Source: an uncultured Gammaproteobacteria bacterium (lineage in GTDB: Bacteria; Patescibacteriota; Microgenomatia; Levybacterales; GWA1-39-11). From it: a DNA stretch of 64,000 nucleotides. Where the stretch lies: contig CAZYWG010000002.1 of assembly GCA_964651815.1 (NCBI GenBank), forward strand, positions 28,522 to 92,521, read 5' to 3'. The position numbers were made by a program, and so were the translations under genes. The notes under the pieces were generated by a model. That model saw only the letters and a program-made list of their open reading frames with translations. It searched no databases and was not told where the DNA came from. Shown piece by piece: positions 9,263 to 36,972 of this stretch. Every line of letters begins with the position of its first letter. Within the stretch, counting starts at the first letter, position 1.

Positions 9263-10603
9263 CTAGTCGAGTTCCGCAGAAAAACGAACATCAATTCTCT
9301 CCATGTCGCGCGGAAAAAGACTTGCTTGTCTGACATTTAACAATTCAAGCATTTTCATAGTCATTCGCTCGAGCCCAAAAGAAAATCCACCATGAGGAGG
9401 CATTCCGTAACGGAATGCTTGAAGGTACATTTCAAAATCACTTTCATTCATCCCCCGCTCTTTAATAAGAGCCACCAATTTTTCATAATTATCTACCCGT
9501 TGACTCCCGGAAAGAATTTCTATTCCGCGGAATAACAGGTCGTAACTCAAAGAAAATTCGGGATCTTCGGCATCAGGATGAGTATAAAACGCGCGTTTTT
9601 TAGTTGGATAATGAGTAATAGTTACAAAATCAGATTCGTGGTTTTCAAGCGCCCATGCGCATATTTCTTTTTCGTCATCAGGTCCCAAATCTTTTTCTTG
9701 CCTTACATCGCGTTTAGTACGCTCATAAATTATTTGCTGCGCCTCACGCATTTTAAGTCTTGGGATTTTGGCGGGAATTTTTGGCTTTTCAATGTTAAAT
9801 TGTTTAAGAATGGACTCACATTCTTTACTTGCATGTTTTAGAGTTTCCGATCCAACAAATTCTAATGAATCCAAAAGCTCTTCAAAATTCATAAATCCCA
9901 ACTCGCAATCCATTTGTGTTGATTCTGAAAGGTGACGCGTTGTTACTGATGGCTCTGCGCGATACGCATGGGATATAAGGAAAACTCTCTCAAATGTTGG
10001 CACCATCATTTGTTTGTAAAGCTGGGGACTTTGAATTAGAAATGCTTTTTTGTCATAATAATCAACTCTGAAAACTTCAGCGCCCCCTTCTGTTGAGGAA
10101 TAAGAGATTGTTGGCGTAAAAATTTCCGTGCATTCAAGTTTCTTTGCAGCTAATCTAAATCCTTCAACTATTGCCTCCTGCATTTTGAAAATTGGGCGGA
10201 CAGACTGGTGTCTTAAAGTTAATGTTCTAAAATCAAGAAGTGTAGGAAGTTCTAAATCCAAGTTTTTTCCACCCATGTCAAATGGCATTGCCTCAGCTTT
10301 TGCAATCAATTCAACGTTTTCTAAGCGAACCTCAACCTTTCCGGTCTCAAGATCCGGATTTATATATTTTTCAGACCTGGCAACAACCTCTCCTGTAACT
10401 TTTACAACATCTTGAACTGAAAGGGTGGCAACCTCTGCAGCAAGCGCGTCAAAAGCTGCAATTTGTATAATTCCGGATCTGTCCCTTAGATCAAAGAAAG
10501 AAATTTTTCCGTGTGTTCTCACGCGCTCTACCCAACCGGAAAGATTCACTTTTTTTCCCACCAGATCATTACAAGATATAATTGTGCTTCGCGACATATG
10601 CAT
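9263..10603 (-). CDS. aspS: class IIb aminoacyl-tRNA synthetase, archaeal/short-type aspartyl- (or asparaginyl-) tRNA ligase
   Basis: N-terminal OB anticodon-binding domain (VNLSGWVERVRTHGKISFFDLRDRSG), class II motifs, and GGFSFGLERMTM motif 3. A 446-aa length fits AspRS/AsnRS, not the bacterial long form. Confidence 0.8.
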   Translation of the reverse strand: MHMSRSTIISCNDLVGKKVNLSGWVERVRTHGKISFFDLRDRSGIIQIAAFDALAAEVATLSVQDVVKVTGEVVARSEKYINPDLETGKVEVRLENVELIAKAEAMPFDMGGKNLDLELPTLLDFRTLTLRHQSVRPIFKMQEAIVEGFRLAAKKLECTEIFTPTISYSSTEGGAEVFRVDYYDKKAFLIQSPQLYKQMMVPTFERVFLISHAYRAEPSVTTRHLSESTQMDCELGFMNFEELLDSLEFVGSETLKHASKECESILKQFNIEKPKIPAKIPRLKMREAQQIIYERTKRDVRQEKDLGPDDEKEICAWALENHESDFVTITHYPTKKRAFYTHPDAEDPEFSLSYDLLFRGIEILSGSQRVDNYEKLVALIKERGMNESDFEMYLQAFRYGMPPHGGFSFGLERMTMKMLELLNVRQASLFPRDMERIDVRFSAELD

Positions 10604-17002: not shown

Positions 17003-17638
17003 TTAAGAAATTAAGGCCTCTTCGTCTCCTATCAACATTACGCGGGAACCGTAAATTATTGAGGTTATAAATGGATCCCTACGCTTTTTCCTGAAAACAA
17101 ATTCTTCCTCAGTCATAACAGTATAATTTATTTCGTGTTTTCTTTTTGCTTCTTCCGCGCGGACTACAACAGAAAGCTCAGGGACGACAATTGTGCCAAC
17201 AAGAAGCAGATCTACTTCTTCAGGATTATCGCGAAGACCCCGTGCAAATTTTCCTGACAACATTGCAAATTTTATTTTACCGAGCTTTATGCGGTTTTTA
17301 ATAATGTCAGCACCTATTCCAATAGTTTTTGCGTAGACATTAAGTAAGTCAAAATAAAAAGGGTATGATTTGTCTAAATAGTAATAAACTCGATTGACAC
17401 GGGGTTCACGTTTTAATATTCCATTTTTCTCAAGATATATAAGCTCACGGCGGACAGCATTTATTTCTTCCTCTACTCGGCGCACCACCTCTCTGACATG
17501 AAACATTTCGGATGGAAACTCCAAAAATAGGGAAAGCACTTTGACCCGAGTTTTAGACGTAATTAAATCGGAAAACATAAAAAATTTACTCGTTTGATTT
17601 TCTGGATCAATTATAAACCAAGAGGCCCTATTTGACAA
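17003..17638 (-). CDS. winged-helix (HTH) domain protein fused to a minimal nucleotidyltransferase-like domain
   Basis: N-terminal wHTH-like region (VREVVRRVEEEINAVRRELIYLEKNGIL), and C-terminal GS-x9-D-x-D-like LSGKFARG...DLLLVG. Confidence 0.45.
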   Translation of the reverse strand: MSNRASWFIIDPENQTSKFFMFSDLITSKTRVKVLSLFLEFPSEMFHVREVVRRVEEEINAVRRELIYLEKNGILKREPRVNRVYYYLDKSYPFYFDLLNVYAKTIGIGADIIKNRIKLGKIKFAMLSGKFARGLRDNPEEVDLLLVGTIVVPELSVVVRAEEAKRKHEINYTVMTEEEFVFRKKRRDPFITSIIYGSRVMLIGDEEALIS

Positions 17639-18809
17639 TAACCGGAGCAGCTATCCCTAAAACATCAAACCATATGAGTCCGCGATCAAATTTTACCTGC
17701 TGTCCATTATTATCTTTAATCATCAATCTTGCTGTTCTGCTCTTTTTGCTCCATGTGCCCACTGTTTCTTGCCCATCCATAAATATCTCTGCCTTACCCG
17801 TACCTTTGGTGCCATAAAGCATGTGTTCATTATCTGTATAACCGTCATTCGCGTGGGATTCATTCATGAAAAGAATCACCACATTTTTTGCTGCTAGCTG
17901 CTTCCCCGTATCTTTATCTAGATGAGCATTGCCACCATTTGTTCTTTTATAAGTATTTGTAATTGGATCATAATTCCATTTCACAGAATAATCTGTGTAG
18001 CCTCCCGAAAAATTAAAGCTTATTACTTGAGATTTCGATCGAGAAGAGGCTTGCGCGTCATCTTTAAATATATATGGAACAAAATTTGCATCCCATGAAG
18101 CCCCATCCTTATCAACATTTGTTAGCTTTCTGCTTTTACCCACGTCCCAAAGCTTACTCGTTGTTGAATACATTGTGTGTTCTGTGGCAACTGTGTGACC
18201 AAGTCTTTCATAATCTCTCCAATAAGTTGGAAAACCTATAGAAAATTGATTTAAATCATTGTATCCGGTCCATCCATAGCCATCAATTTGTCCCAATGCG
18301 TCAGCGGGCCCCGAGGTATTCGCTCCACCTACGTGGGCATAAAGCGGGTTATCTGCGTATTCTGAAATGAAGTCCAAGAAATATGTTCGGGCAGAACGCA
18401 CCGGCCCAACAATCCCTGCGTCTTGGCAGTAGAATACAACTAGAAATCGAGTAATCCCACCTTCCGCAACTGCTTCATAAACAACATCTGCTGATGAAAT
18501 ACCTGACTGGGGACGCGCGTCAAGCGAATTTTCTATCATGACGCCAAGAGGACGATGCTGTTTCCACCATGATTCTTGTTGAGTTGAATATTTTACACCA
18601 TTCAGAGGACATGGTTGTGTTTTTGGAAGTTTGGGATCAAATCCAACTTGCTGGTTTGACCCTGATGAAGGTAACGCAACCGGCGTAACCGTTTGGTTTG
18701 TGCCAATCATTGAACCTCCGGAAAATTTAGTGAATGCAAAGTACGAAACAGCTGCCGCAACTATATATATTACAATTCCAATAATTAAATTTTTCTGTTT
18801 TTGGTCCAT
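17628..18809 (-). CDS. DUF3048 (YerB-like) lipoprotein/secreted protein
   Basis: Signal anchor, then RPLGVMIENSLDARPQSGISSADVVYEAVAEGGITRFLVVF, the hallmark DUF3048 block. Confidence 0.7.
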   Translation of the reverse strand: MDQKQKNLIIGIVIYIVAAAVSYFAFTKFSGGSMIGTNQTVTPVALPSSGSNQQVGFDPKLPKTQPCPLNGVKYSTQQESWWKQHRPLGVMIENSLDARPQSGISSADVVYEAVAEGGITRFLVVFYCQDAGIVGPVRSARTYFLDFISEYADNPLYAHVGGANTSGPADALGQIDGYGWTGYNDLNQFSIGFPTYWRDYERLGHTVATEHTMYSTTSKLWDVGKSRKLTNVDKDGASWDANFVPYIFKDDAQASSRSKSQVISFNFSGGYTDYSVKWNYDPITNTYKRTNGGNAHLDKDTGKQLAAKNVVILFMNESHANDGYTDNEHMLYGTKGTGKAEIFMDGQETVGTWSKKSRTARLMIKDNNGQQVKFDRGLIWFDVLGIAAPVIVK

Positions 18810-20010: not shown

Positions 20011-20060
20011 AAACCCGATTCGAAACGTCTTTAAAAGAGTTCCTTATCGGGTTTTTGCTG
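20011..20060 (+). terminator. hairpin plus T-tract between the small Zn-ribbon gene and the convergent GT2 gene (candidate bidirectional terminator)
   Basis: AAACCCGAT(20011-20019)...ATCGGGTTT(20046-20054) followed by TTTTG. Preceded by the 14-nt perfect palindrome TTGCAAATTTGCAA (19988-20001). Confidence 0.4.
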
Positions 20061-20907
20061 TCTTGAAGTATTTAGGGAAATATTTATATTTTGGAGGAGG
20101 GAAATTTCCCTTTTCGAACGCTTGTTGAAACCCTTTGTATTTTTCAACCCGCTCAGGATACCAAGTCTGCCCTTTAATTAATGGGTCATTTTTATGTTTT
20201 TTGAATATTTGTTCAAATGCTTTGCCCTGATCAACATAAGAAGTATTAGAAACTATTCCATCTTTCCCAAATTTCTGAACATATTCAAATAAAACGTATG
20301 GTATATGCATATATCCATTCGGGAATGATTTACCAAGATTCATTATGAAATCCAAGTCATCAAGCATTCTAAAATTTTTATCCCATTTGACCCCTTTTCT
20401 TATTACGATCGATTTGTGAAATATTCCGGTACCACATGTTCTTACCTTCCAGTGGTAAAAATCTTGTAACTTCACGTCTAAATTTTGCGCCGAGCTTGAA
20501 TTAGTAAAATCTATGAGCTTGTTATTTTCATAAAGTTCAACTCGCCGGTTATAATTACATGTCGCAAAAATTTTCTTAGGATTTTTCTTAAAGAACTCAC
20601 GAGCAACAGAAAGATAGTTTTCATAAACGGGGTCGTCACTATCAATATAGGTAATTATATTTCCATTAGCTCTTTTGAGACCATAATTGCGGGCCGCCGA
20701 ACCACCACCCCTATTTGTTTTAAAAAATTTAATTCTCGGATCTTTTTGAAATTCTGCAACAACCTGCTCCGTATTATCAGTTGAACCGTCGTCAACAATT
20801 ATCATTTCCCAATTTGGATAAATTTGTTTTTGAACTGACTGAATTGTTTTCCAAATTATATAGCCCCGGTTAAAACTTGGAGTAACTATCGAAAATAAAT
20901 CTGACAT
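20044..20907 (-). CDS. family 2 glycosyltransferase
   Basis: IVTPSFNRGYIIWKTIQSVQKQIYPNWEMIIVDDGSTDNT...YIDSDD (DxD) GT-A signature. Confidence 0.8.
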   Translation of the reverse strand: MSDLFSIVTPSFNRGYIIWKTIQSVQKQIYPNWEMIIVDDGSTDNTEQVVAEFQKDPRIKFFKTNRGGGSAARNYGLKRANGNIITYIDSDDPVYENYLSVAREFFKKNPKKIFATCNYNRRVELYENNKLIDFTNSSSAQNLDVKLQDFYHWKVRTCGTGIFHKSIVIRKGVKWDKNFRMLDDLDFIMNLGKSFPNGYMHIPYVLFEYVQKFGKDGIVSNTSYVDQGKAFEQIFKKHKNDPLIKGQTWYPERVEKYKGFQQAFEKGNFPPPKYKYFPKYFKTAKTR

Positions 20908-20953: not shown

Positions 20954-21619
20954 TTGATGTATAATTTACCAAATAATACTATGAACAACATAAAAGCGGT
21001 TATTTTTGATTTGGATGGCACAATAATTGACACTGAGGATATTTGGACACTAATAGATACAGAATTTATAAAAAGAAAAGGGCATGTTTATAGAGAAAAG
21101 GATACAAAACATTTGATGATGGGTAAAAGCGTTAGTGATGGTGTTGAAATTCTTCGCGAGATTTATTCCTTTGAAGGTGATAATGCAATTCTTGCAGATG
21201 AAAGAAGGGGGATTGCAACTGCGTTTCTTTCGAATAACGTATATTTTGTTGACGGGTTTTTAGAGTTTTTTGAAAAGATAAATCAAAAATACAAAGTTGC
21301 AATTGGTACATCAATGGAAAAAGTTTTTCTTTCGGCAATTGATAAAAGACTTAGTTTTACAAAGTATTTTGGGAGTCACGTTTATTCAATTGAAGATGTA
21401 GGATTTGTCTCAAAACCAAGCCCAGACATTTTTTTACACGCCGCAAACAAATTGAAAACAAGACCCGAAAATTGCGTAGTTATTGAAGATTCTCCAAATG
21501 GAGTTGAAGCAGCAAAACGGGCAAAAATGAATTGTGTAGCAATTACAACAACTACAAAAAGAGGGCAATTATCAAAAGCAGATGTTATAGTTGATTCATA
21601 TCAAAAAATCTCGCTCTAG
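20954..21619 (+). CDS. HAD-superfamily hydrolase (beta-phosphoglucomutase/phosphatase-like)
   Basis: IKAVIFDLDGTIIDTE DxD motif and a C-terminal VVIEDSPNGVEAAKRAKM block. Confidence 0.75.
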   Translation: MMYNLPNNTMNNIKAVIFDLDGTIIDTEDIWTLIDTEFIKRKGHVYREKDTKHLMMGKSVSDGVEILREIYSFEGDNAILADERRGIATAFLSNNVYFVDGFLEFFEKINQKYKVAIGTSMEKVFLSAIDKRLSFTKYFGSHVYSIEDVGFVSKPSPDIFLHAANKLKTRPENCVVIEDSPNGVEAAKRAKMNCVAITTTTKRGQLSKADVIVDSYQKISL

Positions 21620-21636: not shown

Positions 21637-23256
21637 TTATTTTCGGGGTGAAATGTGATTCACAAATACAGGCTTTGGCGACTCTTTATAATGCACTAAC
21701 TTGTAAACCTTGAGTACCGACACAGGCCACTCTGCCGCAATTTCAGCTCGCCCAAAACCTGCCACCTCCCAAAGAGACGCGCCAAGCGGCTCGCAATTTG
21801 GATCTTCACATACTACAAACAATTGGTTGGTTACACTTTTTCGCTCAGGATCTATACCTGTATATTGAATTGTTACCGGCGGGTGTCCGTCAACTTCAAA
21901 GATATATCTATACGCATGGTCTGAATTTCCTAACGTCAAAAGAGCAAAATTAAATGGCTTATTTTCTGTTTTTTGAAGAATAAATTCAGAGATTTTTTTT
22001 ACTTGTATGTACTGCTGATTGCCAGGTGCGGCATATGGATATCCAAGCAAATTAAGATATATTAAAACAACAAAAATCAAGGCAGCGACTAATTTATAAA
22101 ATATTTTTTGTAACCAAAAATAAGACAATAAATTTCCTACAAGCAAGAAGGGCACGGGAAACATAAATTCAAAATAATAATCGTAAATTGGCTTACGATA
22201 AAACCCAAACAAAATTACGCCAAACGAAAACCAAAGCAAAATTAGAAGATATTTAAGAAAATCGCGCTTTTTAGATCTGGCAGATTCGACAAATTGAAAT
22301 ACAAGAAATGTCGTTGAAAAAATTCCAAGAATAATTGCTCCCCAGTACCAATATGGAATTGCTTTTGCATAGACATACATCCTTTCCGGCGGTGGAAAAT
22401 ACATAACAAGTCTTGCAAAACTTCTGAAGAAAATATCCCCAACAGTTTGAATGAAAGTTGAATGTGTTAAATCTGTTGCCGTAGTGTCGCCATGCACAAT
22501 GAAATTTATTACAGTTTTGACATTGGGAAAGCCGTGGCGTGCTTCAAATGCTAGAAAAGGGGATAGTCCGATTAGAAATCCAACAAGAATTGCAATATAT
22601 TCTCTCCCTAGCCTGACAATCAGATCTTTTTTACCAATAAAAATATTTCCAATTAAAACATATAAAAAGATAATTACACCGACAAAAATTTCGATATAAT
22701 GAAGTTGAAATGCAATTCCGTAGAGAATTCCTATGATTGCGAATTTTGGGACTGTTGGCTTTTGGATCCACCGGTACAATAAGTAAAAAATCACCATTGA
22801 AAAAAAAGGCATAGGGTTTGGGTTCCAAGATGACCTTGAGTATTGAATTACGAGTGGCGAAATTGCGTAAAGCGCGGCGGCAATAAGCGCGGCTGTTGGG
22901 TTGAACCAGCGGCGGCCAAATTCGTAAATCATGTATGTTGTTATAACCGAAAGTAGGGCAATCATTATTGCGGGACCCACCGGATTGTAATTTGCCAAAA
23001 ACAGAAACGGCGCCATCATATAGTAATAAATAGGCCCGGTAAAAAAGTCGCCAGCGGATGCGCGTGGGCCAAGAAGTGTAAAATGTCCATGTAGAATATC
23101 GCGGACTATTAAAACATCTCTCCCCTCATCACCTAAAAAAGTAAGGTAATCTTGGATTTTATAGATTCTAAAAAATGCAGCAATTATTAAAATTACAGCA
23201 AGTATTATGATTTGAATGTAATTTTTACGAATAAACAATGTAGCGTCCGAAAGCAT
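21637..23256 (-). CDS. GT-C fold membrane glycosyltransferase (ArnT / PMT family 39-like)
   Basis: About 13 TM helices, with a first-loop FLGDEGRD motif region and YYYMMAPFLF; the general architecture of polyprenyl-phosphate-sugar-dependent transferases. Confidence 0.65.
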   Translation of the reverse strand: MLSDATLFIRKNYIQIIILAVILIIAAFFRIYKIQDYLTFLGDEGRDVLIVRDILHGHFTLLGPRASAGDFFTGPIYYYMMAPFLFLANYNPVGPAIMIALLSVITTYMIYEFGRRWFNPTAALIAAALYAISPLVIQYSRSSWNPNPMPFFSMVIFYLLYRWIQKPTVPKFAIIGILYGIAFQLHYIEIFVGVIIFLYVLIGNIFIGKKDLIVRLGREYIAILVGFLIGLSPFLAFEARHGFPNVKTVINFIVHGDTTATDLTHSTFIQTVGDIFFRSFARLVMYFPPPERMYVYAKAIPYWYWGAIILGIFSTTFLVFQFVESARSKKRDFLKYLLILLWFSFGVILFGFYRKPIYDYYFEFMFPVPFLLVGNLLSYFWLQKIFYKLVAALIFVVLIYLNLLGYPYAAPGNQQYIQVKKISEFILQKTENKPFNFALLTLGNSDHAYRYIFEVDGHPPVTIQYTGIDPERKSVTNQLFVVCEDPNCEPLGASLWEVAGFGRAEIAAEWPVSVLKVYKLVHYKESPKPVFVNHISPRK

Positions 23257-23262
23257 AAGGGA

Positions 23263-24414
23263 TTATTTTTTCTTCCAAATAATTTTTGAGTAAACAGTAA
23301 AATTCCAAATAAGCAAGAGCCCTGTCCCAAGTACAAAATATATATAATAATATTTGAGACTAATTATTAAATGCAGTGTCCCTTCTCCAAAAAAACGGTC
23401 ACCTAAGAAAATTGCTCCTGTTTGAATGAAAATTACGCCAATTGCGCTAGTTGCATAAAATTGAAGTAACTTCCAGATATATGACGTGACATTTTTTGTC
23501 GCGTGCTCGGAAAAAGTCCATAAATTGTTGAGATTGTAGTTTGAAAAAATAGCACAAGCAGCCCCTACCAAATTTGCAACCGAATGGTCAAAATGATAAT
23601 TATCAGACAAAACTTTTAGTATCGCGAAGTTAATAATAAACCCTATTCCTCCAACAACCAAAAATTTGCCCAATTTTCCAAAAATTATCTCCTTTAACCT
23701 TGTTGTAATAACGAAAGTTAAAACGTTGATTATGTATGATAGAGGAGCAATTTTAGAATCCCCTTCGTTTCTTTCACCAAAATGGAACGGGACTTCCCCT
23801 ATTTTAAATCCGTCGCGAATTGCTTTTTTTAAAAATGAAACTTGAAATGTGTAACCTTTAAACTCGGTTAATTCGCTTTTTTCCTTAAGGAAAACTTCTT
23901 TTTTCAAAGCCCTAAAGCCACCCGTCCAATCGTGTACGGAAAACTGTGTAAAAATTATTCTTATAATTAAATTTGCGCAAATTGAAAATATCTTGCGGAT
24001 TAAAGGCCAATGTTCGGGAATTGAACCTCCCTCGCTATATCTGTTGCCAAGTACCATATCATACCCATCATCAATCTTTTTTAGAAATTCCGGAATTTTT
24101 TCTGGGTCATGCTGCAAATCAGCATCCATCTCAAAAACAATATCTGCTCCCATTTTATCTATTGCGTACGTCATCCCCCTAACGTAAGCAGCGCCCAGTC
24201 CGTGCTTAGGACCGCTTGAAATCTCAATGTTTTTATATTTTTCACCTAATTTTTTAACTTCTTCGGCTGTCCCGTCCGGAGAAGAATCATCTGCAACTAA
24301 AATTTTCATCTCATAATTTTTTATCTTGGGGAAAATTTCATCCTCAAGAATTGGAATAATTTTAGCAATGTTATTGCGTTCGTTGTATGTAGGTAGAATG
24401 ATTACTGCTTTCAT
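23263..24414 (-). CDS. polyprenyl-phosphate glycosyltransferase (GT2; DPM-synthase/Ppm1/ArnC-like) fused to a C-terminal GtrA-like TM domain
   Basis: ILPTYNERNNIAKII...VADDSSPDGTAEEV...VFEMDADLQHDP, then 4 TM helices (KFLVVGGIGFIINFAILKVL...). Confidence 0.8.
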   Translation of the reverse strand: MKAVIILPTYNERNNIAKIIPILEDEIFPKIKNYEMKILVADDSSPDGTAEEVKKLGEKYKNIEISSGPKHGLGAAYVRGMTYAIDKMGADIVFEMDADLQHDPEKIPEFLKKIDDGYDMVLGNRYSEGGSIPEHWPLIRKIFSICANLIIRIIFTQFSVHDWTGGFRALKKEVFLKEKSELTEFKGYTFQVSFLKKAIRDGFKIGEVPFHFGERNEGDSKIAPLSYIINVLTFVITTRLKEIIFGKLGKFLVVGGIGFIINFAILKVLSDNYHFDHSVANLVGAACAIFSNYNLNNLWTFSEHATKNVTSYIWKLLQFYATSAIGVIFIQTGAIFLGDRFFGEGTLHLIISLKYYYIYFVLGTGLLLIWNFTVYSKIIWKKK

Positions 24415-24479: not shown

Positions 24480-25439
24480 TTAACCATTTAATGTCCTGAA
24501 GTATTCTATCGTTTTTGCAAGCCCTGCGGCAAGCGCCACTTTTGGTTGAAAGTCTAAAATTGCGTGTGCTTGAGTTATATCAGGTTTCCTTTGGTGGGGG
24601 TCATCTTCTGGTAAGTCTTCGTGAACTATTTCCGAGCTTGAATCTGTTAATTTCTTAATCTTTTGCGCAAGTTCCAAAATTGTATACTCTTCCGGGTTTC
24701 CCAAATTTATTACGCTACCTGAAATGTTTTTTTTAAACATAGAAGAAATTAGACCCTCTACCATATCGTCGACATAGCAAAAGCTCCTAGTTTGGGCGCC
24801 GGTCCCATAAATCGTCAGTGGTTCATCGAAAAGTGCTTGAACAATAAAATTTGACACCACACGCCCGTCATCTTTTTGCATTTTAGGTCCATATGTATTA
24901 AAAATCCTGGCAATTCTAACATCTAAATTATATTTTCTGTAATATGCCATACTTGCGGCTTCTCCAAATCTTTTTCCTTCGTCATAAACAGAACGGATCC
25001 CTACGGGATTTACGTTCCCAAAATAGCTCTCTTTTTGAGGAGATTGGTCTGGGTCTCCATAGACTTCTGATGTTGATGCAAAAACAAAAGTTGAGTTTTT
25101 AGCAAGTGCCAAATCCAGTAAGTTTATAGTTCCTTGTGAATTAACCATAAGTGTCTCAATTGGATAAGCAATGTAACTTCTCTCACTTTTGGCATTTGGG
25201 GAAGCAGGGGACGCTAGGTGAAAAATACCCTTCAGACTGTGATTGATATTTGGAACGGTATGAATTATATCGTAATTTATAAAAATAAAATTTTCATTGT
25301 TATAAAGATGTGAAATATTCTCCTCAGCGCCCGTTATGAAATTATCAACACAAATCACTTTATTATTTTCTTTTAAAAGCGACTCACAAAGGTGTGAACC
25401 AATAAATCCTGCCCCACCGGCAACTAAAAATGTGTGCAT
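24480..25439 (-). CDS. UDP-glucuronate decarboxylase (UDP-xylose synthase) / ArnA-like SDR
   Basis: GGAGFIGSHLCESLL, YDEGKRFGE, NTYGPKMQKDDGRVVSNFIVQAL; a close match to the UXS family. Confidence 0.8.
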   Translation of the reverse strand: MHTFLVAGGAGFIGSHLCESLLKENNKVICVDNFITGAEENISHLYNNENFIFINYDIIHTVPNINHSLKGIFHLASPASPNAKSERSYIAYPIETLMVNSQGTINLLDLALAKNSTFVFASTSEVYGDPDQSPQKESYFGNVNPVGIRSVYDEGKRFGEAASMAYYRKYNLDVRIARIFNTYGPKMQKDDGRVVSNFIVQALFDEPLTIYGTGAQTRSFCYVDDMVEGLISSMFKKNISGSVINLGNPEEYTILELAQKIKKLTDSSSEIVHEDLPEDDPHQRKPDITQAHAILDFQPKVALAAGLAKTIEYFRTLNG

Positions 25440-25549
25440 TAAACTATTGTAACAAAATGTTGATGAATCATGAAACCCTGCGTCTTTAAGAAGACAGCCT
25501 GGACCCGCAATCGACTCTTGAGAAAACCAATCACTTTATGTAGAATTAT

Positions 25550-28165: not shown

Positions 28166-29455
28166 TCATCTTCCAACTCCCGTATAGTTGAAACCATCAC
28201 CTCTTAATTTCTTAGGATCATACATATTGCGAGCATCGATAATATTGGGTGACTTCATATTTTTTTTGACTTTCTCGAAATCCAGTTCTGCAAAATCATT
28301 CCAATCAGTAAGTACAATTAACAAATCTGCATTCTCTGTTGTTTCATAAATATTTTCGGCGTAAGTAACATTTGGTAAAATTTGCTTTGCATTTTCCATA
28401 GCTTCTGGGTCAAATGCTGTAACACTAGCTCCGTCGTTTATAAGCCATGAAATAATATCAATTGCCGGTGCATCTCTCATATCATCCGTGTTTGGTTTAA
28501 ACGCAAGACCTAATATTCCAATTTTTTTTCCACGGAGTTCACCTAAAATTTTTCGTGATTTTCTCACAATATCGCGTCTAGTTTGGTGATTTATATTTTC
28601 AACTTCAGAAAGCAATGAAAAAGCGTAGTCATTGTCTTTTGCAATGGATATTAACGCGCGTACGTCTTTTGGAAAACAGCTTCCGCCATATCCCGGACCC
28701 GGCGAGAGAAACAAATTACCTATTCTCTTATCCATTCCAATACCTTCTAAAACTCTTAACGCATCTGCACCAAGAAGTTCTGAAAGTTTTGCTATTGCGT
28801 TTGCGTAAGATATTTTGAGCGCAAGAAAAGAATTCGCAGCGTATTTTATAAGCTCAGCAGTCTCGAAATTAGTTAAAAGTACAGGTGCGTGAATTGGTTC
28901 ATGGAGTGAAACCAAAAGTTTTTGGGCCCTTGGATCTTCAGTTCCTATAATAACTCTATCTGGACCGACAGTATCGTTTATTGCACTCCCTTCTCGTAAG
29001 AATTCTGGAACCGATGCGTAAGAAACCTCAGCTCCTTCCGGCTTTGTTTCTTCTAAAATTCTTTGCACTTTCTTGTTAGTACCTATTGGAACCGTACTTT
29101 TTGTAGCAACAACAGTGTATCCTGAAAGATTTGCTCCAATCTTTTCCGCGACACCAAGAACTGCTGAAAGGTCCGCGTCCCCTGTTTTCATCGGAGGTGT
29201 CCCGACTGCAATAAAAACAATATCAGAATCGGAAATAGCGGGTGCGTAATCAAGAGTAAAAAATAACCTACCAGCTTTTATGTTTTTCATAACAAGTTCT
29301 GATAGACCAGGCTCAAATATTGGAATTACCCCTTTTTTTAAATTCTCAACTTTTTCCTTTGTATGTCCTATAACGTATACAGTATTACCAAAATCGGCAA
29401 AAACCGCAGCAGTTACAAGACCTACGTATCCATGTCCTATGAATGTTATTTTCAT
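28166..29455 (-). CDS. ugd: UDP-glucose 6-dehydrogenase (UDP-Glc/GDP-Man dehydrogenase family)
   Basis: MKITFIGHGYVGLVTAAVFADFG, GGSCFPKD catalytic Cys motif, and GLAFKPNTDDMRDAP. Confidence 0.85.
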   Translation of the reverse strand: MKITFIGHGYVGLVTAAVFADFGNTVYVIGHTKEKVENLKKGVIPIFEPGLSELVMKNIKAGRLFFTLDYAPAISDSDIVFIAVGTPPMKTGDADLSAVLGVAEKIGANLSGYTVVATKSTVPIGTNKKVQRILEETKPEGAEVSYASVPEFLREGSAINDTVGPDRVIIGTEDPRAQKLLVSLHEPIHAPVLLTNFETAELIKYAANSFLALKISYANAIAKLSELLGADALRVLEGIGMDKRIGNLFLSPGPGYGGSCFPKDVRALISIAKDNDYAFSLLSEVENINHQTRRDIVRKSRKILGELRGKKIGILGLAFKPNTDDMRDAPAIDIISWLINDGASVTAFDPEAMENAKQILPNVTYAENIYETTENADLLIVLTDWNDFAELDFEKVKKNMKSPNIIDARNMYDPKKLRGDGFNYTGVGR

Positions 29456-30384
29456 TGCGTTTTAATTTTTTTCAGGGCTTCAAAAAAATCCGTCACTTGA
29501 AAACCTAAGTCTCTAAGTTTATCATTTTCAAGCATTACTTTAAAGGGTCGATTAGCCCTCCCGTGATAGAGATCTGCCCGTGTTGTAAGCTCAATTTTAG
29601 ATTCCGGAAGGCCAAACTCCCGTGCAATCGCAATACCAATCTCATAAGGCGAAAGAAAATTTTTTCCAACAAGATGAATCAATCCCGAAACATTGTTTTC
29701 TATTAAAAAATTAATTCCTCCCGCAATATCTTCTATAAATGTTGGGGTAATTATTTGGTCCGATATCAGCTTAACTACCTCACGTGTGCCTAATAAATCA
29801 ACCAAATTCCAAATTAAATCCTTTTTAAGGCTGCTTTTATACCCAAAAGGATAAGAAATTCTACATGTTAAAGAATCATTGTTCAGAACTTTCTCTCCGT
29901 AAAATTTTGTTTGTCCATACCAATCAATCGGGTCAGGTATGTCAGCTTCTGAATATCTACCCTCTTTTTCTCCGTTAAATACAAAATCGGTTGATATATA
30001 TATTATTTTTAGATTATTTTTAATTGCGTAATCGGAAAGATTTTTTGTTCCAACTGTATTTATCCCGAATGCGGATTTAGACTTTTTCCAGAAATCTAGA
30101 TCAATTTTTTCAAAATCTATCTCTCCATCTATGTATGCTTTTTGTTTTTCAAGTAACTTAATGTCACTTTCGCGATCATCCTCACAAGAATCTACGTTTG
30201 TTTTTGCTGCAAAATGAAGAATAAGGCTCGGTTTTTTTTGCGATAAAAATTTATGCAGATGACGTCTGTCAGTAATATCTACTCCGTATGACGAAGATAT
30301 TGGAATGAGTTCATAACGACTTTTAAATAAATCAAAAAACCTGGAACCTACAAGGCCGGTCGCGCCAGTTATTGCTACTTTCAT
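29452..30384 (-). CDS. rfbD: dTDP-4-dehydrorhamnose reductase-like (RmlD family, with an insertion)
   Basis: MKVAITGATGLVGSRF, a YGQTK YxxxK motif and an RmlD substrate-binding C-terminus. Overlaps ugd and rmlB by 4 nt each. Confidence 0.65.
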   Translation of the reverse strand: MKVAITGATGLVGSRFFDLFKSRYELIPISSSYGVDITDRRHLHKFLSQKKPSLILHFAAKTNVDSCEDDRESDIKLLEKQKAYIDGEIDFEKIDLDFWKKSKSAFGINTVGTKNLSDYAIKNNLKIIYISTDFVFNGEKEGRYSEADIPDPIDWYGQTKFYGEKVLNNDSLTCRISYPFGYKSSLKKDLIWNLVDLLGTREVVKLISDQIITPTFIEDIAGGINFLIENNVSGLIHLVGKNFLSPYEIGIAIAREFGLPESKIELTTRADLYHGRANRPFKVMLENDKLRDLGFQVTDFFEALKKIKTQ

Positions 30385-31394
30385 GAATTTTTATATTGTT
30401 TTTCATAGTATTTCTTATATTCACCATCCTTAACGTCGCGCCACCACATCTCATTATCGCGATACCAATTAACGGTTTTCTCGAGCCACTCATCAAAACC
30501 ATGAAGAGGCTGCCATCCCAGTTCTGTCTTAATTTTTGACCAATCCACAGCGTATCTCCTGTCATGCCCGGGCCTGTCTGCAACAAATTCAATCATGTCA
30601 TCCGACATTCCCAACAAGTGAATTATTTTTTTTGCTACATCTAAATTTGAAATGTCCTCTGTTAAACCTCCTACAACATATGTTTCCCCAATTCTGCCAT
30701 TATTCAAAACTGCATCGATTGCCCGGGCATGGTCCTCAACATACAGCCAATCTCTTACATACAATCCATCGCCATAAATCGGAATTTTTTTACCTTCAAG
30801 TAAATTAGTTATAGCCAGAGATATAACTTTTTCTGGAAATTGATAAGGGCCAAAATTATTTGAACAATTTGTGATGGTAAACGGTAAATTAAAAGTATGT
30901 CCATACGAACGGACTAGATGATCCGAACCGGCTTTGCTTGCTGAATAAGGACTTCTGGGGTCATAAGGTGTTCGTTCATTAAATTTGTTCATGTCTCCCA
31001 ACTCAAGCGCTCCAAAGACTTCATCAGTTGATACATGATGAAATCTTTTTACGTTATTTTTGAGTGAAGCGTCAAGCAAAACTTGAGTCCCAACCACATT
31101 TGTCAAAACAAACTGCGCGGGATCATGTATGGAGCGGTCAACGTGGCTTTCGGCGGCAAAATGCACAACCGTGTCGATTCCCATCATGACGCTATTAACT
31201 TCATCTACATTTGTAATATCCCCCTTAACAAATTTATAATTGGGATTTTTTTCAACTTCCGTAAGGTTTTCAAGATTCCCGGCGTATGTCAATTTATCAA
31301 AATTAATGATTTCATCATGAGGGTGATTTTTAATCCAATACAATATGAAATTTGATCCAATAAAACCTGCTCCGCCGGTAACAAGAAGTTTCAT
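30381..31394 (-). CDS. rfbB: dTDP-glucose 4,6-dehydratase
   Basis: MKLLVTGGAGFIGSNFI...DKLTYAGNLENL, YSASKAGSD, FHHVSTDEVFG. Confidence 0.88.
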   Translation of the reverse strand: MKLLVTGGAGFIGSNFILYWIKNHPHDEIINFDKLTYAGNLENLTEVEKNPNYKFVKGDITNVDEVNSVMMGIDTVVHFAAESHVDRSIHDPAQFVLTNVVGTQVLLDASLKNNVKRFHHVSTDEVFGALELGDMNKFNERTPYDPRSPYSASKAGSDHLVRSYGHTFNLPFTITNCSNNFGPYQFPEKVISLAITNLLEGKKIPIYGDGLYVRDWLYVEDHARAIDAVLNNGRIGETYVVGGLTEDISNLDVAKKIIHLLGMSDDMIEFVADRPGHDRRYAVDWSKIKTELGWQPLHGFDEWLEKTVNWYRDNEMWWRDVKDGEYKKYYEKQYKNS

Positions 31395-31400
31395 AAATGT

Positions 31401-32135
31401 TTAGAGTTCGTTGGCCTTTACTTTTTCTGCAACCAAATTATTTGCGCGGAGGAGTTCATCATGAGAAGTCCCAGCATCTATCCACCAATCTAAAAGTTCA
31501 CATTTCAAAGTCCCTTCTTTGAGATATTCATTATTAAGGTCCGTCACTTCCAATTCACCTCTTTTTGACGGTTTTAACTTACTTATAAAATCAAAAACGC
31601 GGTTGTCATACATATATACTCCGGTCTGTGCTATATTTGATTTTGGGTTCTCGGGTTTTTCTTCAATTGAAATTACTTTACCTTTTTCGTCCATTTCTAT
31701 CACTCCGTACTGGCCGGATTTTGTTGGCATTATCATCCCAAAAACAGTTGCACCCTTTTCTTGTTTCTCAAATTCATTCACTATATCGCTCAGATTAAAT
31801 CCGAATATTCCATCTCCCAGTAATACTAAAATTTGTTCGTTATCCGAAAACTCTTTGGCGAGAAGCATTGCTTCTGCAATACCCCCCGGTTTGTCCTGCA
31901 CGGTAAAATAAAGTCTCAACCCAAATTCCTCCCCAGATTTTAACAAACTAGTAAACTGTCCTGCATGATCTGGCGATGAGGAAATAAGCACTTCCTTTAT
32001 TCCCGCGCGAACCATAGATTCGATTGGGTAATAAATCATTGGCTTATTGTAAACCGGAAGCAAATGTTTATTGGTAACAAGGGTTAATGGTCTGAGTCTG
32101 GTTGCAAGTCCACCTGCGAGTATTACACCTTTCAT
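31401..32135 (-). CDS. rfbA: glucose-1-phosphate thymidylyltransferase (short RmlA)
   Basis: MKGVILAGGLATRLRPLTLVTNKHLLPVYNKPMIYYP...EEKPENPKSNIAQTGVYMYD...PSKRGELEVTD. The start was taken at ATG 32135, which forms ATGA coupling with the upstream small ORF. The track's longer start at 32165 is less likely. Confidence 0.8.
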   Translation of the reverse strand: MKGVILAGGLATRLRPLTLVTNKHLLPVYNKPMIYYPIESMVRAGIKEVLISSSPDHAGQFTSLLKSGEEFGLRLYFTVQDKPGGIAEAMLLAKEFSDNEQILVLLGDGIFGFNLSDIVNEFEKQEKGATVFGMIMPTKSGQYGVIEMDEKGKVISIEEKPENPKSNIAQTGVYMYDNRVFDFISKLKPSKRGELEVTDLNNEYLKEGTLKCELLDWWIDAGTSHDELLRANNLVAEKVKANEL

Positions 32136-32344
32136 ATTTTTCCAACGGAAAGAAACAAAAAGCAAGCAAAAATTAAGATGCTTACAAGAATATATTCTAC
32201 CACAATTTTTGTTCTGAGTGTGTGGTGAAGCTTATGATGAAAAGTGCCTACCAATGTGTATATTACTAGAATAACAATTAATGCTGTTTCTTGAGCGTGA
32301 AAATTGTAAGACAAGCGATAAACAAAGAAGAATCCGATAAGCAA
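32132..32344 (-). CDS. small (70-aa) two-TM membrane protein, translationally coupled to rmlA
   Basis: Its TGA stop overlaps the rmlA ATG (ATGA). Hydrophobic, with an HHKLHH motif. No homology recognised. Confidence 0.4.
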   Translation of the reverse strand: MLIGFFFVYRLSYNFHAQETALIVILVIYTLVGTFHHKLHHTLRTKIVVEYILVSILIFACFLFLSVGKI

Positions 32345-32394: not shown

Positions 32395-33339
32395 TTATAT
32401 GATTACCCCTCCTTTTAGAATTATCATGAACAAGATAAACGTAAGAATTAACATTATATGGTCAAGATTATGCCCAACAATTCTTGGAATTTTTTTCCGC
32501 TCTATTATTACCAAATCCATAAGAAGCCCAAATCCTATAAAGGATAGGGCAACGCTTGTTGCGGCTTTTGAAGTTATTGAAACATCAATTTTTGGCTTGT
32601 TAACTACAGCAGTATGTGCAGGTTGCGATGCGGAGGCGGTTTTTACAACAACTTTTGCTTGAATAGGAGTTGGTGTTGGCAAAACTTTTGGACTTTGAGC
32701 GTTTGTTTCTTGACCCGCTACATTTGACTGAGCTGACGCAGTTGTAGCAGGCGGTAAAACGGCAAGATTTTCACCGGCTGTTGAACCAAATTCCTGAACA
32801 ATTAAAACTGTATCTTCACCCTGCAATGTACCGGGCACTACTGCAAAGCCTACGTCCTTAAAATGAGTTGATAAAATATTTTCCCGGTGTGATGATGAAT
32901 TCATCCACGCGTTGACTGCTGACGACGAATCAGTAAAACCTTTAGCTAAATTTTCGCCTGCAAATTGATAATTATACCCTGCAGCGCGTATAAATCCCCA
33001 TGGGGAAGTTGATCCGTCTGGCGCAAAATGCGCCCAGTAATTTTTCTGGAACATGTCAGCCGCTTTTCTTCTTGCAGCGTCTGCCAACTCTGAATTTTCA
33101 ACCAAAGCAGGCAATCCATTTGATACTCTCTGTTGATTAACAAGTGCAAGCAGGTCACTTTCTGATATTGAATATGAAACACCTAAGACGTCCGGATGCG
33201 ATTTATTAATGTTGTACCCCAAAAACGTAACGCTGAATATAAAAAGAATGATTATTACAAGACTCGAATGGTGCAATACCCGGGCGCGGTGATTATTTCT
33301 CTTGTGGGGAGTAAGCAAGTGCTTTAGAAACTTAATCAT
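32395..33339 (-). CDS. CAP/SCP (YkwD-like) domain protein with an N-terminal signal anchor, PT-containing linker and C-terminal TM helix
   Basis: LVNQQRVSNGLPALVENSELADAARRKAADMFQKNYWAHF...GENLAKGF...AVNAWMNSSSHRENIL...HFKDVGFAV, a classic CAP domain. Confidence 0.7.
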   Translation of the reverse strand: MIKFLKHLLTPHKRNNHRARVLHHSSLVIIILFIFSVTFLGYNINKSHPDVLGVSYSISESDLLALVNQQRVSNGLPALVENSELADAARRKAADMFQKNYWAHFAPDGSTSPWGFIRAAGYNYQFAGENLAKGFTDSSSAVNAWMNSSSHRENILSTHFKDVGFAVVPGTLQGEDTVLIVQEFGSTAGENLAVLPPATTASAQSNVAGQETNAQSPKVLPTPTPIQAKVVVKTASASQPAHTAVVNKPKIDVSITSKAATSVALSFIGFGLLMDLVIIERKKIPRIVGHNLDHIMLILTFILFMIILKGGVII

Positions 33340-34757: not shown

Positions 34758-35636
34758 TTACTTTCCAATTTTTTGGCGGAGAAAGGATACTATTTTATCT
34801 CCAAACTGAAAGTAAGCAAGTATGCCACACACCGCCAAGAATATCAAACCTAAAACAATAAAAATAACCGGTTGGACTGATGTTGATATTCCTAATACTT
34901 CAGTTTTAACCGCTTTTGTAGGAGTACCTTGTTTGAATATATTGTTGCCCGCATCTGATCCTAGCTTAAGACTTGAATTTGGATCATCAGTTGGTGTGGG
35001 ACCTCTTTCCGAATTCGGATCATTACTTAAAGTTTTATTCCCTAGAGCAGGCGTTTTAGTAGGAGTTGGAGCAGACGTTGGAACTTTGGTTGGCGTCGCA
35101 CTAGGTGCAGGTGTTGGAGTTGGTGTTTTTGTAGGTGTAGGTGCGTTAGTTGGTACGGGAGTTGCCGTTGGAGGTGGAGCAGAATTAGTCGCTCCCTCTG
35201 TCGAATCAGTATTATTTACAAACGAACCCGTACCATTTGGAATTCTTGACCAAGATTTATCTTGCGTTGTCGAATCAAACGACATGGAATCGATTGTCTG
35301 GCCAGAATCATCTTTCAACTCGACACCATCCCCGGTATTATTAAGTGATATTCCTGTTGTTTGTTTGTTAAACGAAATATATGCTCCTGCAGACAAACTA
35401 TTCTCTGGTATTGTATAAGTATTGGTCGAACCTGTTGTATCCGAAATTTTCCAGTTTGTAATTGAAACAGAGTCAGATCCATTATTAAATAGTTCGATAA
35501 ATTCTGAATCCTCGGATGAAGATCCGCTGGGGTTAGGAAAAACCTCATTTATTACAACATTTGAAGCAAAAACGCTTCTCGGGAAAAAATAGAAAATCAA
35601 AAAAAGAATTGATAACGTCTGAAGAATCTTCCTCAT
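34758..35636 (-). CDS. secreted lamin-tail-domain (LTD) protein with a long Pro/Thr linker and C-terminal TM anchor
   Basis: Signal peptide, then VVINEVFPNPSGSSSEDSEFIELFNNGSDSVSITNWKISD (LTD signature). This is followed by about 45 aa of PTPT repeats and a C-terminal hydrophobic helix. Confidence 0.7.
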   Translation of the reverse strand: MRKILQTLSILFLIFYFFPRSVFASNVVINEVFPNPSGSSSEDSEFIELFNNGSDSVSITNWKISDTTGSTNTYTIPENSLSAGAYISFNKQTTGISLNNTGDGVELKDDSGQTIDSMSFDSTTQDKSWSRIPNGTGSFVNNTDSTEGATNSAPPPTATPVPTNAPTPTKTPTPTPAPSATPTKVPTSAPTPTKTPALGNKTLSNDPNSERGPTPTDDPNSSLKLGSDAGNNIFKQGTPTKAVKTEVLGISTSVQPVIFIVLGLIFLAVCGILAYFQFGDKIVSFLRQKIGK

Positions 35637-35700: not shown

Positions 35701-36972
35701 TTAATTTACAACAACTTTGTCAATTTCAAAAATACTTGCAACGGAATAGTGGTCTGTAAAACTTATATCTTTCCCATTTGGAATATATGGGTCTCGCATT
35801 GTATAACTACCACCAGAACCGCTTTTAATGACAACGAAATGCGTCCCACCATATGCATGAATTCCAACTATTGCAGGATTCCCGCCGGATAACGCATCAT
35901 CTAACGCAGAACCTGTTCTTGATGCTGTTGCGCCGTCCGCATGAACTGTATACAAAAGGTATGCTGGATAATAAGATGCAAAATTACCGGGGTCGGAATT
36001 AATAGAGATAGGCGTGACTCCGTGATGACCGTAATGTGTAAATATCATCGCAACTGACGTAACCAAACAGCCGTCGGACGCGATTGTGTATTGTGTACCG
36101 TTGAGCGACAAACCACCCCATTGAGTGTCACGCTGGTTATAATAACAACCCCAGTCATCACATGATGTTTGGCCAGATAGTAAGGAAGATCCACCAAGGT
36201 TTGCGGTAAATTTGGAAAAGCCTGCTAACTGCGCCTGGGCTGCGGCAAGCAATTTTTCATAACTTGATTCATTCCCTTGAGTTTGGGCGAGCAAGGTTTG
36301 CTTATCTTTTTTCTGACCATCAAGCTGGTCTGTGTAATCAGAAAGTTTTTTATTTAATGCCTCCGCTTGAGCTTCCTCACCCTGATAAATTGTTTTTTGG
36401 TTTGTGTAATCGTTTTTATTTTGTTCAGCAGCGTATACCTTCCGCTTATCGTAAACCTGGACGATTCTAAGATATGTTAGCCGCTTGAATACATCGGCAA
36501 GATTTGTTGCAGACAAAAAAATCTCCCATGGCTTTATAGTCCCAACCTGATAAACTGCCGCAATTCTGGCAATTAAAACTTTTGTAGAAGAGTCAATATC
36601 GTGTTGTAAATTGGCTACTTTCCCTTTAGCAATTTCTATATCCTTGTTTAAATTTGTAATTTGATCTTTAGTTGCTTCAATTCGGAGCTCAGTTAATTTT
36701 ATTTGATTGTCCATTATTCCAATTTGTGAATTGAGTGTTTTTTCCTGTCCTTGAAGATCCGTTATTTTCTGCTGATATTCTTTTATTTGTTTTTCGAGAT
36801 CTGCCTGCGCTGCCGAATTATCCTGACTAGGAGTTGGGGTAGCACTAGGCGTTGGAGTTGGATCATCCGCGTAAACTAAACAAAATCTTGCTGCAAAAAG
36901 AGCAACAAAAGAAATTATTATAGTGGCAATTAGAAAATTTTTAAATCCTGAATCTTTTGACCATTTAACCAT
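35701..36972 (-). CDS. PcsB/EnvC-like coiled-coil protein with a C-terminal papain-like (peptidase C39_2-like) domain; putative FtsEX-controlled peptidoglycan hydrolase
   Basis: N-terminal TM helix, PT linker and about 200 aa of heptad-rich coiled coil. The C-terminus carries SDGCLVTSVAMIFTHYG (Cys motif) and GGTHFVVI (His). Lies immediately downstream of ftsX. Confidence 0.6.
   Translation of the reverse strand: MVKWSKDSGFKNFLIATIIISFVALFAARFCLVYADDPTPTPSATPTPSQDNSAAQADLEKQIKEYQQKITDLQGQEKTLNSQIGIMDNQIKLTELRIEATKDQITNLNKDIEIAKGKVANLQHDIDSSTKVLIARIAAVYQVGTIKPWEIFLSATNLADVFKRLTYLRIVQVYDKRKVYAAEQNKNDYTNQKTIYQGEEAQAEALNKKLSDYTDQLDGQKKDKQTLLAQTQGNESSYEKLLAAAQAQLAGFSKFTANLGGSSLLSGQTSCDDWGCYYNQRDTQWGGLSLNGTQYTIASDGCLVTSVAMIFTHYGHHGVTPISINSDPGNFASYYPAYLLYTVHADGATASRTGSALDDALSGGNPAIVGIHAYGGTHFVVIKSGSGGSYTMRDPYIPNGKDISFTDHYSVASIFEIDKVVVN

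Follow-up and report, generated by a model that had tools for sequence, protein, structure and literature searches.

A 64-kb stretch of contig CAZYWG010000002.1 (the window), from a bacterium of the Levybacteria within the Microgenomates, a lineage of the Candidate Phyla Radiation (CPR, or Patescibacteria), was analyzed. Its minus strand carries three consecutive genes, encoding a UDP-glucuronate decarboxylase (UDP-xylose synthase, UXS), a fusion of a GT2 glycosyltransferase with a GtrA-type membrane domain (GT2::GtrA) and a class A glycosyltransferase of the GT-C fold. With moderate confidence, these genes were read as an operon for a two-step glycosylation that depends on a lipid carrier, the acceptor of which is probably a glycopolymer of the envelope or a lipid-linked glycan. 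The two-step, lipid-linked mechanism itself is very probable. The machinery is of a well-known kind; new are the lineage, a CPR class in which the operon is core and syntenic, the orphan status of a GT-C subfamily that has a conserved outer domain of its own, the coupling to a UXS gene and the fusion of synthase and transferase in sister lineages.

The GT2::GtrA protein (383 aa; 23263..24414, minus strand) matched Glycos_transf_2 in Pfam (E 9e-26) and then GtrA_DPMS_TM, a domain with four transmembrane (TM) helices (PF04138, E 8.3e-14; residues ~250-380; 23275..23667, minus strand) that is a possible flippase or lipid-handling module. Residues 1-358 were aligned with the dolichyl-phosphate mannose synthase (DPMS) of Pyrococcus furiosus (PfDPMS, 5mlz; E 1.5e-39, 139 bits), which shares the GT2 plus 4-TM architecture over this whole length. 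The other solved relatives were ArnC (~1e-15, 61 bits) and GtrB (5e-10); the identity to E. coli ArnC was 26% (E 4e-21), and PpgS appeared among the weak NCBIfam matches. The metal/diphosphate-binding motif of the GT2 domain, read from the translation (DADLQH, residues 97-102; 24109..24126, minus strand), is identical to 89-DADLQH-94 of PfDPMS, the residues of which have been assigned roles (PMC5526996). These roles were tested in an alignment of 83 synthase family members. The nucleotide contacts Tyr10, Asp39, Gly68 and Leu69, together with Glu12, the DAD-motif residues Asp89 and Asp91, the contacts to the phosphate of dolichyl phosphate (Arg117, Arg131 and Ser135) and the acceptor-loop residues Arg202 and Lys208 (all in PfDPMS numbering, used from here on), were invariant or nearly so. 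The invariance of these contact residues and the full-length match to PfDPMS provide strong sequence evidence that GT2::GtrA is a polyprenyl-phosphate glycosyl synthase of the Dpm1/Ppm1/DPMS class.

The GT-C protein (539 aa; 21637..23256, minus strand), a predicted user of lipid-linked sugar, had PMT_2 as its sole Pfam match (E 1.3e-14, residues 75-204) and no match at all among the curated NCBIfam models (E<=0.01). When the PDB was searched by sequence, with the single query and with a 40-sequence profile, no GT-C enzyme was matched. The PMT core model PF02366 did not match the protein even at E<=1, and neither did PMT_4TMC or MIR domains at the same threshold; the STT3 core was without a Pfam match as well, and the WWD motif was absent from the sequence. 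Pfam scoring of 40 aligned relatives gave PMT_2 in all 40, STT3 in ten, PF02366 in three and TMEM260 in three, the scores of the last three models being weak, and no arabinosyltransferase family (AftA/AftB/Emb) was found among the matches of these 40 members. Since the control, E. coli ArnT, scored 211 bits on PF02366 and just 37 on PMT_2, the family of the window GT-C lies outside the model that covers both ArnT and the true PMTs. By the sequence tests available, it falls in neither GT39 nor GT83.

The motif FLGDEGRD (residues 40-47; 23116..23139, minus strand) was invariant in all 40 aligned sequences and lies where the helix of the first extracytoplasmic loop begins, a position consistent with Asp43/Glu44 as the predicted catalytic acidic pair. 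In an hhalign comparison with E. coli ArnT, GDEGRD was paired with PDETRY, in a weak alignment with a probability of 1.2%. Given this pairing, weak as it is, the Asp-Glu pair was not treated as specific to PMTs, and it probably is not. At least 491 species-representative genomes contained the FLGDEGRD pattern and the signature peptides of the family; the labelled loci among the best 80 with signature peptides all belonged to Levybacteria/Microgenomates. More than 3000 homologues of the GT-C were found, of which the best 120 were ~50-69% identical to it, and those with a named source came from Levybacteria or the Patescibacteria group. An exhaustive search of 1.84 billion cluster representatives returned 508 relatives at E<=1e-30, which are representatives at 50% identity, and 2883 at E<=1e-10; identity fell gradually to ~30% among the best 150 listed. 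One homologue, P0198, is clearly high-GC and does not look like a CPR protein, so the family reaches beyond Patescibacteria; it has the variant FLADEGRD and a degenerate GT2-like N-terminal region. Two close homologues, P0123 and P0047, share a C-terminal extension of ~170 aa (residues ~525-700) without a Pfam match, which could be an additional extracytoplasmic domain.

An AlphaFold2 model of the GT-C, made from 40 homologues (mean pLDDT 89, pTM 0.87), consisted of 12-13 long hydrophobic helices followed by a small soluble alpha/beta C-terminal domain. When the model was compared with the PDB by Foldseek, the high-probability matches were all GT-C class A enzymes, at 12-15% identity throughout. 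The best global superposition was obtained with ArnT (TM-score 0.59/0.59). AglB, STT3, ALG12 and Chaetomium Pmt4 (CtPmt4) matched at probability 1.00, with AftB and PglB also close behind; AglB had the lowest E-value but a TM-score of 0.47/0.31, CtPmt4 was no better a match than ArnT or ALG12, and the matches to AftA/AftB/Emb were weak (TM-score 0.33-0.46, E 1e-4 to 6e-3). Judged by this model, the GT-C would stand about equally far from ArnT, STT3/AglB, ALG12 and Pmt4.

These results bear on a sequence-only reading made earlier of the same DNA, which had described the two genes as a PMT/GT39-like transferase beside a Ppm1-like synthase. Its account of the pair as a lipid-phosphate-sugar synthase followed by a GT-C that uses lipid-linked sugar outside the membrane appears well founded, the synthase being a putative member of the Dpm1/Ppm1/DPMS class, and its count of 13 TM helices is approximately right. 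The PMT/GT39-like label was not borne out: the GT-C matches the catch-all model PMT_2 and not PF02366, and it is structurally about equidistant from several GT-Cs. Placed by Pfam and Foldseek against PMT, ArnT, AftA and STT3/AglB, it went firmly with none of them, and no firm clustering with lipid A or arabinan transferases was seen.

The C-terminal domain of the GT-C (residues 406-525; 21682..22041, minus strand) contains many invariant columns, among them the pair Cys483/Cys488, which fits an extracytoplasmic location. It measures ~120 aa, as against the large C-terminal domain of STT3/AglB/PglB, and on the model it is a possible acceptor-binding domain of unrecognised fold. In a search for a carbohydrate- or peptide-binding fold, the domain modelled alone (pLDDT 81) had no significant structural neighbour in the PDB (best E 0.15).

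The two proteins are also tied together genetically. As the sequence-only reading had noted, their genes are adjacent on the same strand, the stop codon of GT2::GtrA lying 6 nt from the start of GT-C. In 72 of 82 related loci this gap was 50 nt or less, and in 52 the open reading frames (ORFs) overlapped; a pair kept in 82 loci is not a chance neighbourhood. Fusion proteins provide a separate line of evidence that the GT-C family acts together with a polyprenyl-phosphate-sugar synthase. Nine distant relatives of the GT-C had an N-terminal extension of ~145-250 aa, and in seven of them (P0145, P0161, P0188, P0194, P0218, P0231 and P0144) the extension contained a GT2 domain. When one fusion served as the query, more than 100 of the best 120 matches were full-length fusions, and in Amesbacteria, Woesebacteria and other Microgenomates the GT-C normally takes this form, as a GT2-GT-C protein of 710-750 aa. 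The fused GT2 is 28% identical to the window synthase (E 1e-15) through the catalytic and interface region, and its best solved relatives are ArnC, DPMS and GtrB. The GT-C half is an orthologue of the window GT-C (34-36% identity, E down to 1e-89) that retains the FLGDEGRD and SRSSWNPN motifs and the C-terminal domain with its Cys pair. No description of GT2-GT-C fusions was found in the literature.

From these data a mechanism can be proposed. At the cytoplasmic face, the GT2 domain would load polyprenyl phosphate with one sugar taken from a nucleotide sugar, a step suggested by the strong homology and the conserved residues. The lipid-phosphate-sugar would then be flipped, possibly with the aid of the synthase's own GtrA/DPMS-type 4-TM domain. 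Finally, at the outer face, the GT-C would transfer the sugar to the acceptor by means of Asp43/Glu44 of its first outer loop, as its fold, its motif and the gene fusion suggest.

For comparison, the Gram-positive transmembrane glycosylation systems (CsbB/GtcA/YfhO, GtlA/GtlB, GacI/GacL, CsdAB/CD/EF with CflA, and GtsABC) and the enterobacterial Gtr system were considered. As in these systems, a GT2 synthase, a GtrA-family module and a GT-C are encoded together in the window, and many of their GT-C members match only Pfam PMT_2, as the window GT-C does (PMC8035078; PMC11127046). The testable defining features, namely a GT2 synthase, a GtrA-family component (PF04138, here fused) and a genetically linked transferase with the GT-C fold, were all found, and by these predicted features the unit is a three-component (Gtr-type) extracytoplasmic glycosylation system. 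Unlike in the systems compared, the GtrA-type module is fused to the synthase here and the synthase domain to the GT-C in sister lineages, the window GT-C has no curated NCBIfam match and has its own conserved C-terminal domain, and the host is a CPR bacterium.

The UXS gene (24480..25439, minus strand) is the first of the three-gene unit, a membership that the sequence-only reading had missed, and its product may supply the nucleotide sugar. That this decarboxylase is a true UXS follows from its matches to the human UXS1 structures, with 328 bits (E 4e-97; next class of match 5e-43), and to ArnA, with only 79 bits (~4e-21). The unit is bounded by a divergent GDP-mannose dehydratase gene (GMD, plus strand) on one side and a convergent gene for a phosphatase of the haloacid dehalogenase (HAD) family on the other, so that UXS, GT2::GtrA and GT-C are its sole co-oriented genes. 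The intergenic region between UXS and GMD (25440..25549) is presumed, from gene orientation only, to hold the promoter. A scan for promoters and terminators around the genes gave no excess over chance (18 sites vs 16.2 expected), and hence the boundaries of the three-gene operon that we infer rest on gene orientation and spacing. The UXS gene was directly upstream of GT2::GtrA in 70 of 77 informative Levybacteria loci, and in 66 of 78 loci it was translationally coupled to it or separated from it by 50 nt or less.

Across 83 loci the syntenic order was CAP, RmlA/B/D, UDP-glucose 6-dehydrogenase (Ugd), a short-chain dehydrogenase/reductase (SDR), GMD, UXS, GT2::GtrA, GT-C, DUF4446 and DUF3048. 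The Ugd gene (28166..29455, minus strand), which has all three UDPG_MGDP_dh domains and is syntenic in nearly all of these loci, would supply UDP-glucuronate to UXS and so be linked to the module in function. The island of activated-sugar genes described in the sequence-only reading is real: besides UXS and Ugd, it comprises GMD (E 7e-101), a second SDR of GDP-sugar type, a methyltransferase and RmlA/RmlB/RmlD-like genes. The window as a whole is low in GC (~37%) and chromosomal, with the housekeeping genes SecDF, aminoacyl-tRNA synthetases, RecJ and FtsEX. In one Levybacteria locus (L077, ~7900-10000), the GT-C gene is preceded by two GT2::GtrA genes in tandem, with 63% and 38% identity to that of the window, hinting at two different lipid-linked sugars.

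The gene content of the sister lineages was taken from three loci with fusions (L085-L087). The beginning of these loci resembles that of the window locus in having dTDP-sugar genes and genes for a CAP-domain membrane protein and GT2::GtrA, and these last two proteins are 35-38% identical to their window counterparts. They go on with the fusion itself (~720 aa; L085:8001-10184, L086:8001-10148, L087:8001-10196), two to three further PMT/PMT_2 GT-C genes and one to two further GT2 genes, and two of the three loci also contain a PTPS_related membrane protein and a flippase of the Polysacc_synt (Wzx) type. Altogether the clusters (L085:5733-18184, L086:5787-17621, L087:5618-17691) hold three to five genes of GT-C type (PMT_2, PMT, PTPS_related and one without a Pfam match) and three to four GT2 synthase-like genes, which suggests that they assemble a glycan largely outside the membrane. 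Mycobacteria assemble extracytoplasmic glycans by the same logic, with batteries of GT-Cs that use decaprenyl-phosphate sugars (PpgS with Rv3779, Mpt/Aft/Emb); unlike the mycobacterial AftA/AftB/Emb enzymes, to which only the weak structural matches given above were obtained, the window GT-C family has no arabinosyltransferase Pfam match, and the Levybacteria locus has one GT-C. A conserved gene of ~364-385 aa on the opposite strand, without a Pfam match, was also observed in the sister clusters.

The extra genes of the fusion loci had no homologue in the window or in the other Levybacteria loci, and the Levybacteria locus is therefore a pared-down one. We infer that the module is the Levybacteria version, reduced in this way, of a Microgenomates envelope-glycan locus made up of CAP, dTDP-sugar genes, GT2::GtrA and GT-C, and this makes an envelope glycopolymer or a lipid-linked glycan a likelier acceptor than a Pro/Thr linker. 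That the acceptor is a glycan or a lipid-linked glycan can be held with moderate confidence. In its favor, the orthologue stands in a cluster with several GT-Cs, accompanied in two of three loci by a Wzx-type flippase, and all the characterised Gram-positive PMT_2-type GT-Cs (GtlB, GttB, GtcC, CsdD, CsdF, GtsC and GacL) modify wall glycopolymers, namely lipoteichoic acid, wall teichoic acid, rhamnan, pellicle or secondary cell wall polysaccharide (PMC8035078). Furthermore, the best structural match of the GT-C, ArnT, is a lipid-modifying enzyme, which favors a glycan or lipid-linked glycan over a protein. Another lipid as the acceptor is very improbable.

Several results weigh against this reading, or against parts of it. 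The synteny within the lineage also takes in unrelated housekeeping genes (SecDF, YqeY), so that adjacency to sugar genes has limited weight. Neither the window nor the other Levybacteria loci contained polymer-assembly genes of Wzx/Wzy/WecA type, and RmlC (3,5-epimerase) was missing from the whole 64-kb window and from most Levybacteria loci; a glycopolymer target is therefore not visible locally, and L-rhamnose is not to be assumed. The C-terminal domain of the GT-C gave no clue to the acceptor. The UXS gene was not beside GT2::GtrA in seven of the 77 Levybacteria loci or in the three sister-lineage loci, and the sugar-pocket residues of the synthase did not co-vary with the presence of UXS next door. 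Moreover, Lys178, which contacts O4 of mannose in PfDPMS, is replaced by Thr, Ile or Ala in the synthase family, so that neither xylose nor mannose was confirmed.

The decoration of a rhamnan, as a target specific to the window, was also considered; this candidate was weakened, given that RmlC, Wzx and any further GT-C were absent from the window and from most Levybacteria loci. The dTDP-sugar branch of the window consists of RmlD-, RmlB- and RmlA-like genes (29452-32165), and in the sister lineages RmlC is part of the cluster. This branch may end in a dTDP-6-deoxy-D-hexose instead of L-rhamnose; alternatively, the gene for RmlC may lie elsewhere.

The leading candidates for the transferred sugar are xylose, on account of the co-operonic UXS, and mannose, on account of the similarity to DPMS. 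If it is mannose, the synthase would make polyprenyl-phosphate-mannose as Dpm1, Ppm1 and PfDPMS do, and UXS would be a mere neighbour in a nucleotide-sugar block serving other transferases. The best characterised relative of the synthase is indeed a GDP-mannose-dependent enzyme, PfDPMS, ahead of ArnC in bit score. Of the PfDPMS residues that touch guanine, Asp39, Gly68 and Leu69 do not vary in the family; of those that touch mannose, Asp89 and Arg117 are likewise invariant, and His94 is kept in 75 of 82 sequences. Since the window encodes a GDP-mannose dehydratase, the substrate GDP-mannose must be available, and the loci in which UXS is not next to GT2::GtrA speak in the same direction. However, the conserved contacts discriminate poorly between sugars, since they occur in UDP-sugar enzymes of the class as well (for example, the DD pair in ArnC); moreover, Lys178 is lost and Gln93 is variable. 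The close coupling of UXS in most loci and its place among the only co-oriented genes of a bounded operon also argue against a mere neighbour. The mannose alternative was considered possible but doubtful. Further differences from PfDPMS are Tyr in place of Phe177 and the location of the synthase gene in one operon with UXS and GT-C.

Xylose is weakened as a candidate by the lack of co-variation in the pocket residues and by the absence of UXS at the corresponding position in the sister lineages. The full proposal would be that UXS feeds the synthase, which makes polyprenyl-phosphate-xylose from UDP-xylose, that the GT-C xylosylates a surface molecule and that Microgenomates build or decorate an envelope glycan mainly on the outer side of the membrane, with a battery of dedicated synthase/GT-C pairs of which some are single fused proteins, by a logic otherwise associated with mycobacteria and the eukaryotic endoplasmic reticulum; taken together, this is a speculative proposal and rather unlikely. 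If the sugar is xylose, the donor would be of a new type: no lipid-phosphate-xylose donor made from UDP-xylose was found described in the literature, and the known lipid-linked pentofuranose routes begin at phosphoribosyl pyrophosphate or methylthioadenosine (PMC11127046). A literature search on glycosylation in CPR bacteria returned nothing relevant.

With regard to the acceptor, the main alternative is protein O-glycosylation of the Ppm1/Pmt kind, in which the GT-C would put the lipid-linked sugar on Ser/Thr residues of the Pro/Thr linkers of exported proteins (LTD, CAP and PcsB-like). The sequence-only reading had linked the module to at least four such proteins and named four. A long and true Pro/Thr tract was confirmed in the LTD protein (34758-35636) and short ones, of ~15 aa, in the CAP protein at 616-1398 and the PcsB-like protein (35701-36972), whereas the CAP protein at 32395-33339 has just a spacer rich in Ser/Thr/Ala/Gln (40% S+T+P) and no such linker. 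Three exported proteins with true tracts in the window therefore remain on the side of this alternative, as does the CAP membrane protein with a Ser/Thr-rich spacer that heads the locus in every lineage examined. In addition, the synthase is closest to DPMS, and archaea and eukaryotes use enzymes of this class to supply protein glycosylation; the GT-C has an Asp-Glu pair in its first outer loop, as PMTs do, the weak secondary Pfam matches of the GT-C relatives (STT3, PMT and TMEM260) include protein-modifying enzymes, and polymer-assembly genes are absent near the Levybacteria operon. The likeness to actinobacterial Ppm1 plus Pmt (GT39), as predicted from the proteins, lies in a Dpm1-class synthase that would feed a GT-C with an Asp-Glu pair in the first loop, in a genome that encodes exported Ser/Thr/Pro-rich proteins.

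Nevertheless, unlike actinobacterial Pmt, the window GT-C matches neither PF02366 nor any other PMT-specific Pfam model. Its DE motif stood opposite that of ArnT, in the weak alignment mentioned, and is probably not a PMT trait; CtPmt4 offered no better structural match than ArnT or ALG12. The characterised bacterial PMT_2 enzymes outside the Actinobacteria act on glycopolymers, and the sister-lineage orthologue stands in a run of several GT-Cs, the majority of which would need a growing glycan as the acceptor. No result linked the module to the Pro/Thr proteins or to any other protein substrate, and their sole tie to it is a place on the same 64 kb. In Actinobacteria, moreover, Ppm1 is not known to carry a GtrA-type domain, nor is its gene known to adjoin pmt. 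A protein Ser/Thr acceptor was consequently judged unlikely, and a glycan or lipid-linked glycan was preferred.

A modification of the Arn kind, in which Ugd, the decarboxylase, the GT2 and the GT-C would put a pentose on the head group of a membrane lipid, lipid A in the classical pathway and some other glycolipid or a lipoglycan in this case, is highly unlikely: the Arn pathway (Ugd, ArnA, ArnB, ArnC, ArnD, ArnT, ArnE/F) has the same enzyme logic and the same order of Ugd, a decarboxylase of the ArnA/UXS SDR family, an ArnC-like GT2 synthase and a 13-TM-type GT-C, with ArnT as the best global structural match and its PDETRY motif weakly aligned with GDEGRD, but no aminotransferase (ArnB), formyltransferase, deformylase (ArnD) or ArnE/F was found in the window or the syntenic loci, the decarboxylase is a genuine UXS, and the GT-C had no match to the NCBIfam ArnT models or to PF02366 and only the minimal hhalign probability given above. 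CPR/Patescibacteria are described as lacking lipopolysaccharide, so that lipid A, the acceptor of the Arn pathway, would not be available and is not to be expected in these bacteria; a different lipid might serve instead.

The genomes of CPR bacteria are tiny, their way of life relies on contact with other cells, and their surface chemistry is almost uncharted. The operon likely serves a core envelope function, since it is kept at one and the same place in at least 491 species-level genomes and the orthologue persists in sister lineages, in many cases fused to the synthase. Knowing which sugar it transfers, and to what, would offer an entry point to a conserved surface glycoconjugate of the CPR. 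For annotation, neither a PMT_2 match nor the automatic name 'glycosyltransferase family 39 protein' should be taken as a sign of protein O-mannosylation.

Some further observations concern the surroundings of the operon and its relatives. Just downstream of it lie genes for a WcaA/TuaG-like cytoplasmic GT2 (20044-20907) and a HAD hydrolase of the beta-phosphoglucomutase family (20954-21619). This GT2 was shared only with the closest relative, L001, and the slot is therefore a variable accessory one. In L009 and L022, the genes between GT-C and DUF4446, examined for a link to the pathway, proved to be an unrelated Suf Fe-S operon and pyruvate:ferredoxin oxidoreductase genes. Inside the Suf operon of L009, a second PMT_2 GT-C paralogue (17287-18723, 478 aa) was located, unrelated to the window GT-C at the BLASTP level. 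Many public records of metagenome-assembled genomes with a Levybacteria-type locus (among L005-L082; for example, L005, L008 and L009) are titled 'uncultured Gammaproteobacteria bacterium', which looks like systematic mislabelling.

Elsewhere in the window, a 146-aa ORF (153-593) matched the C-terminal third, and no other part, of a GT20 trehalose-6-phosphate synthase. A fragment or a pseudogene is possible, as is a true gene that begins upstream of the first start codon of this ORF. A 794-aa ORF without a Pfam match (41450-43834), containing a stretch rich in Ser/Thr/Pro/Cys, lies in the sole GC-rich segment of the window (GC 0.45 vs ~0.37) and may encode another surface protein or represent foreign DNA. 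Finally, a VirD4/TrwB-like coupling-protein ATPase stands beside two very large ORFs of 987 and 745 aa (52680-54989, 58675-61638 and 61700-63937 for the three genes), the former without a match in a Pfam scan, and these genes may form a cluster resembling type IV secretion or DNA uptake systems.

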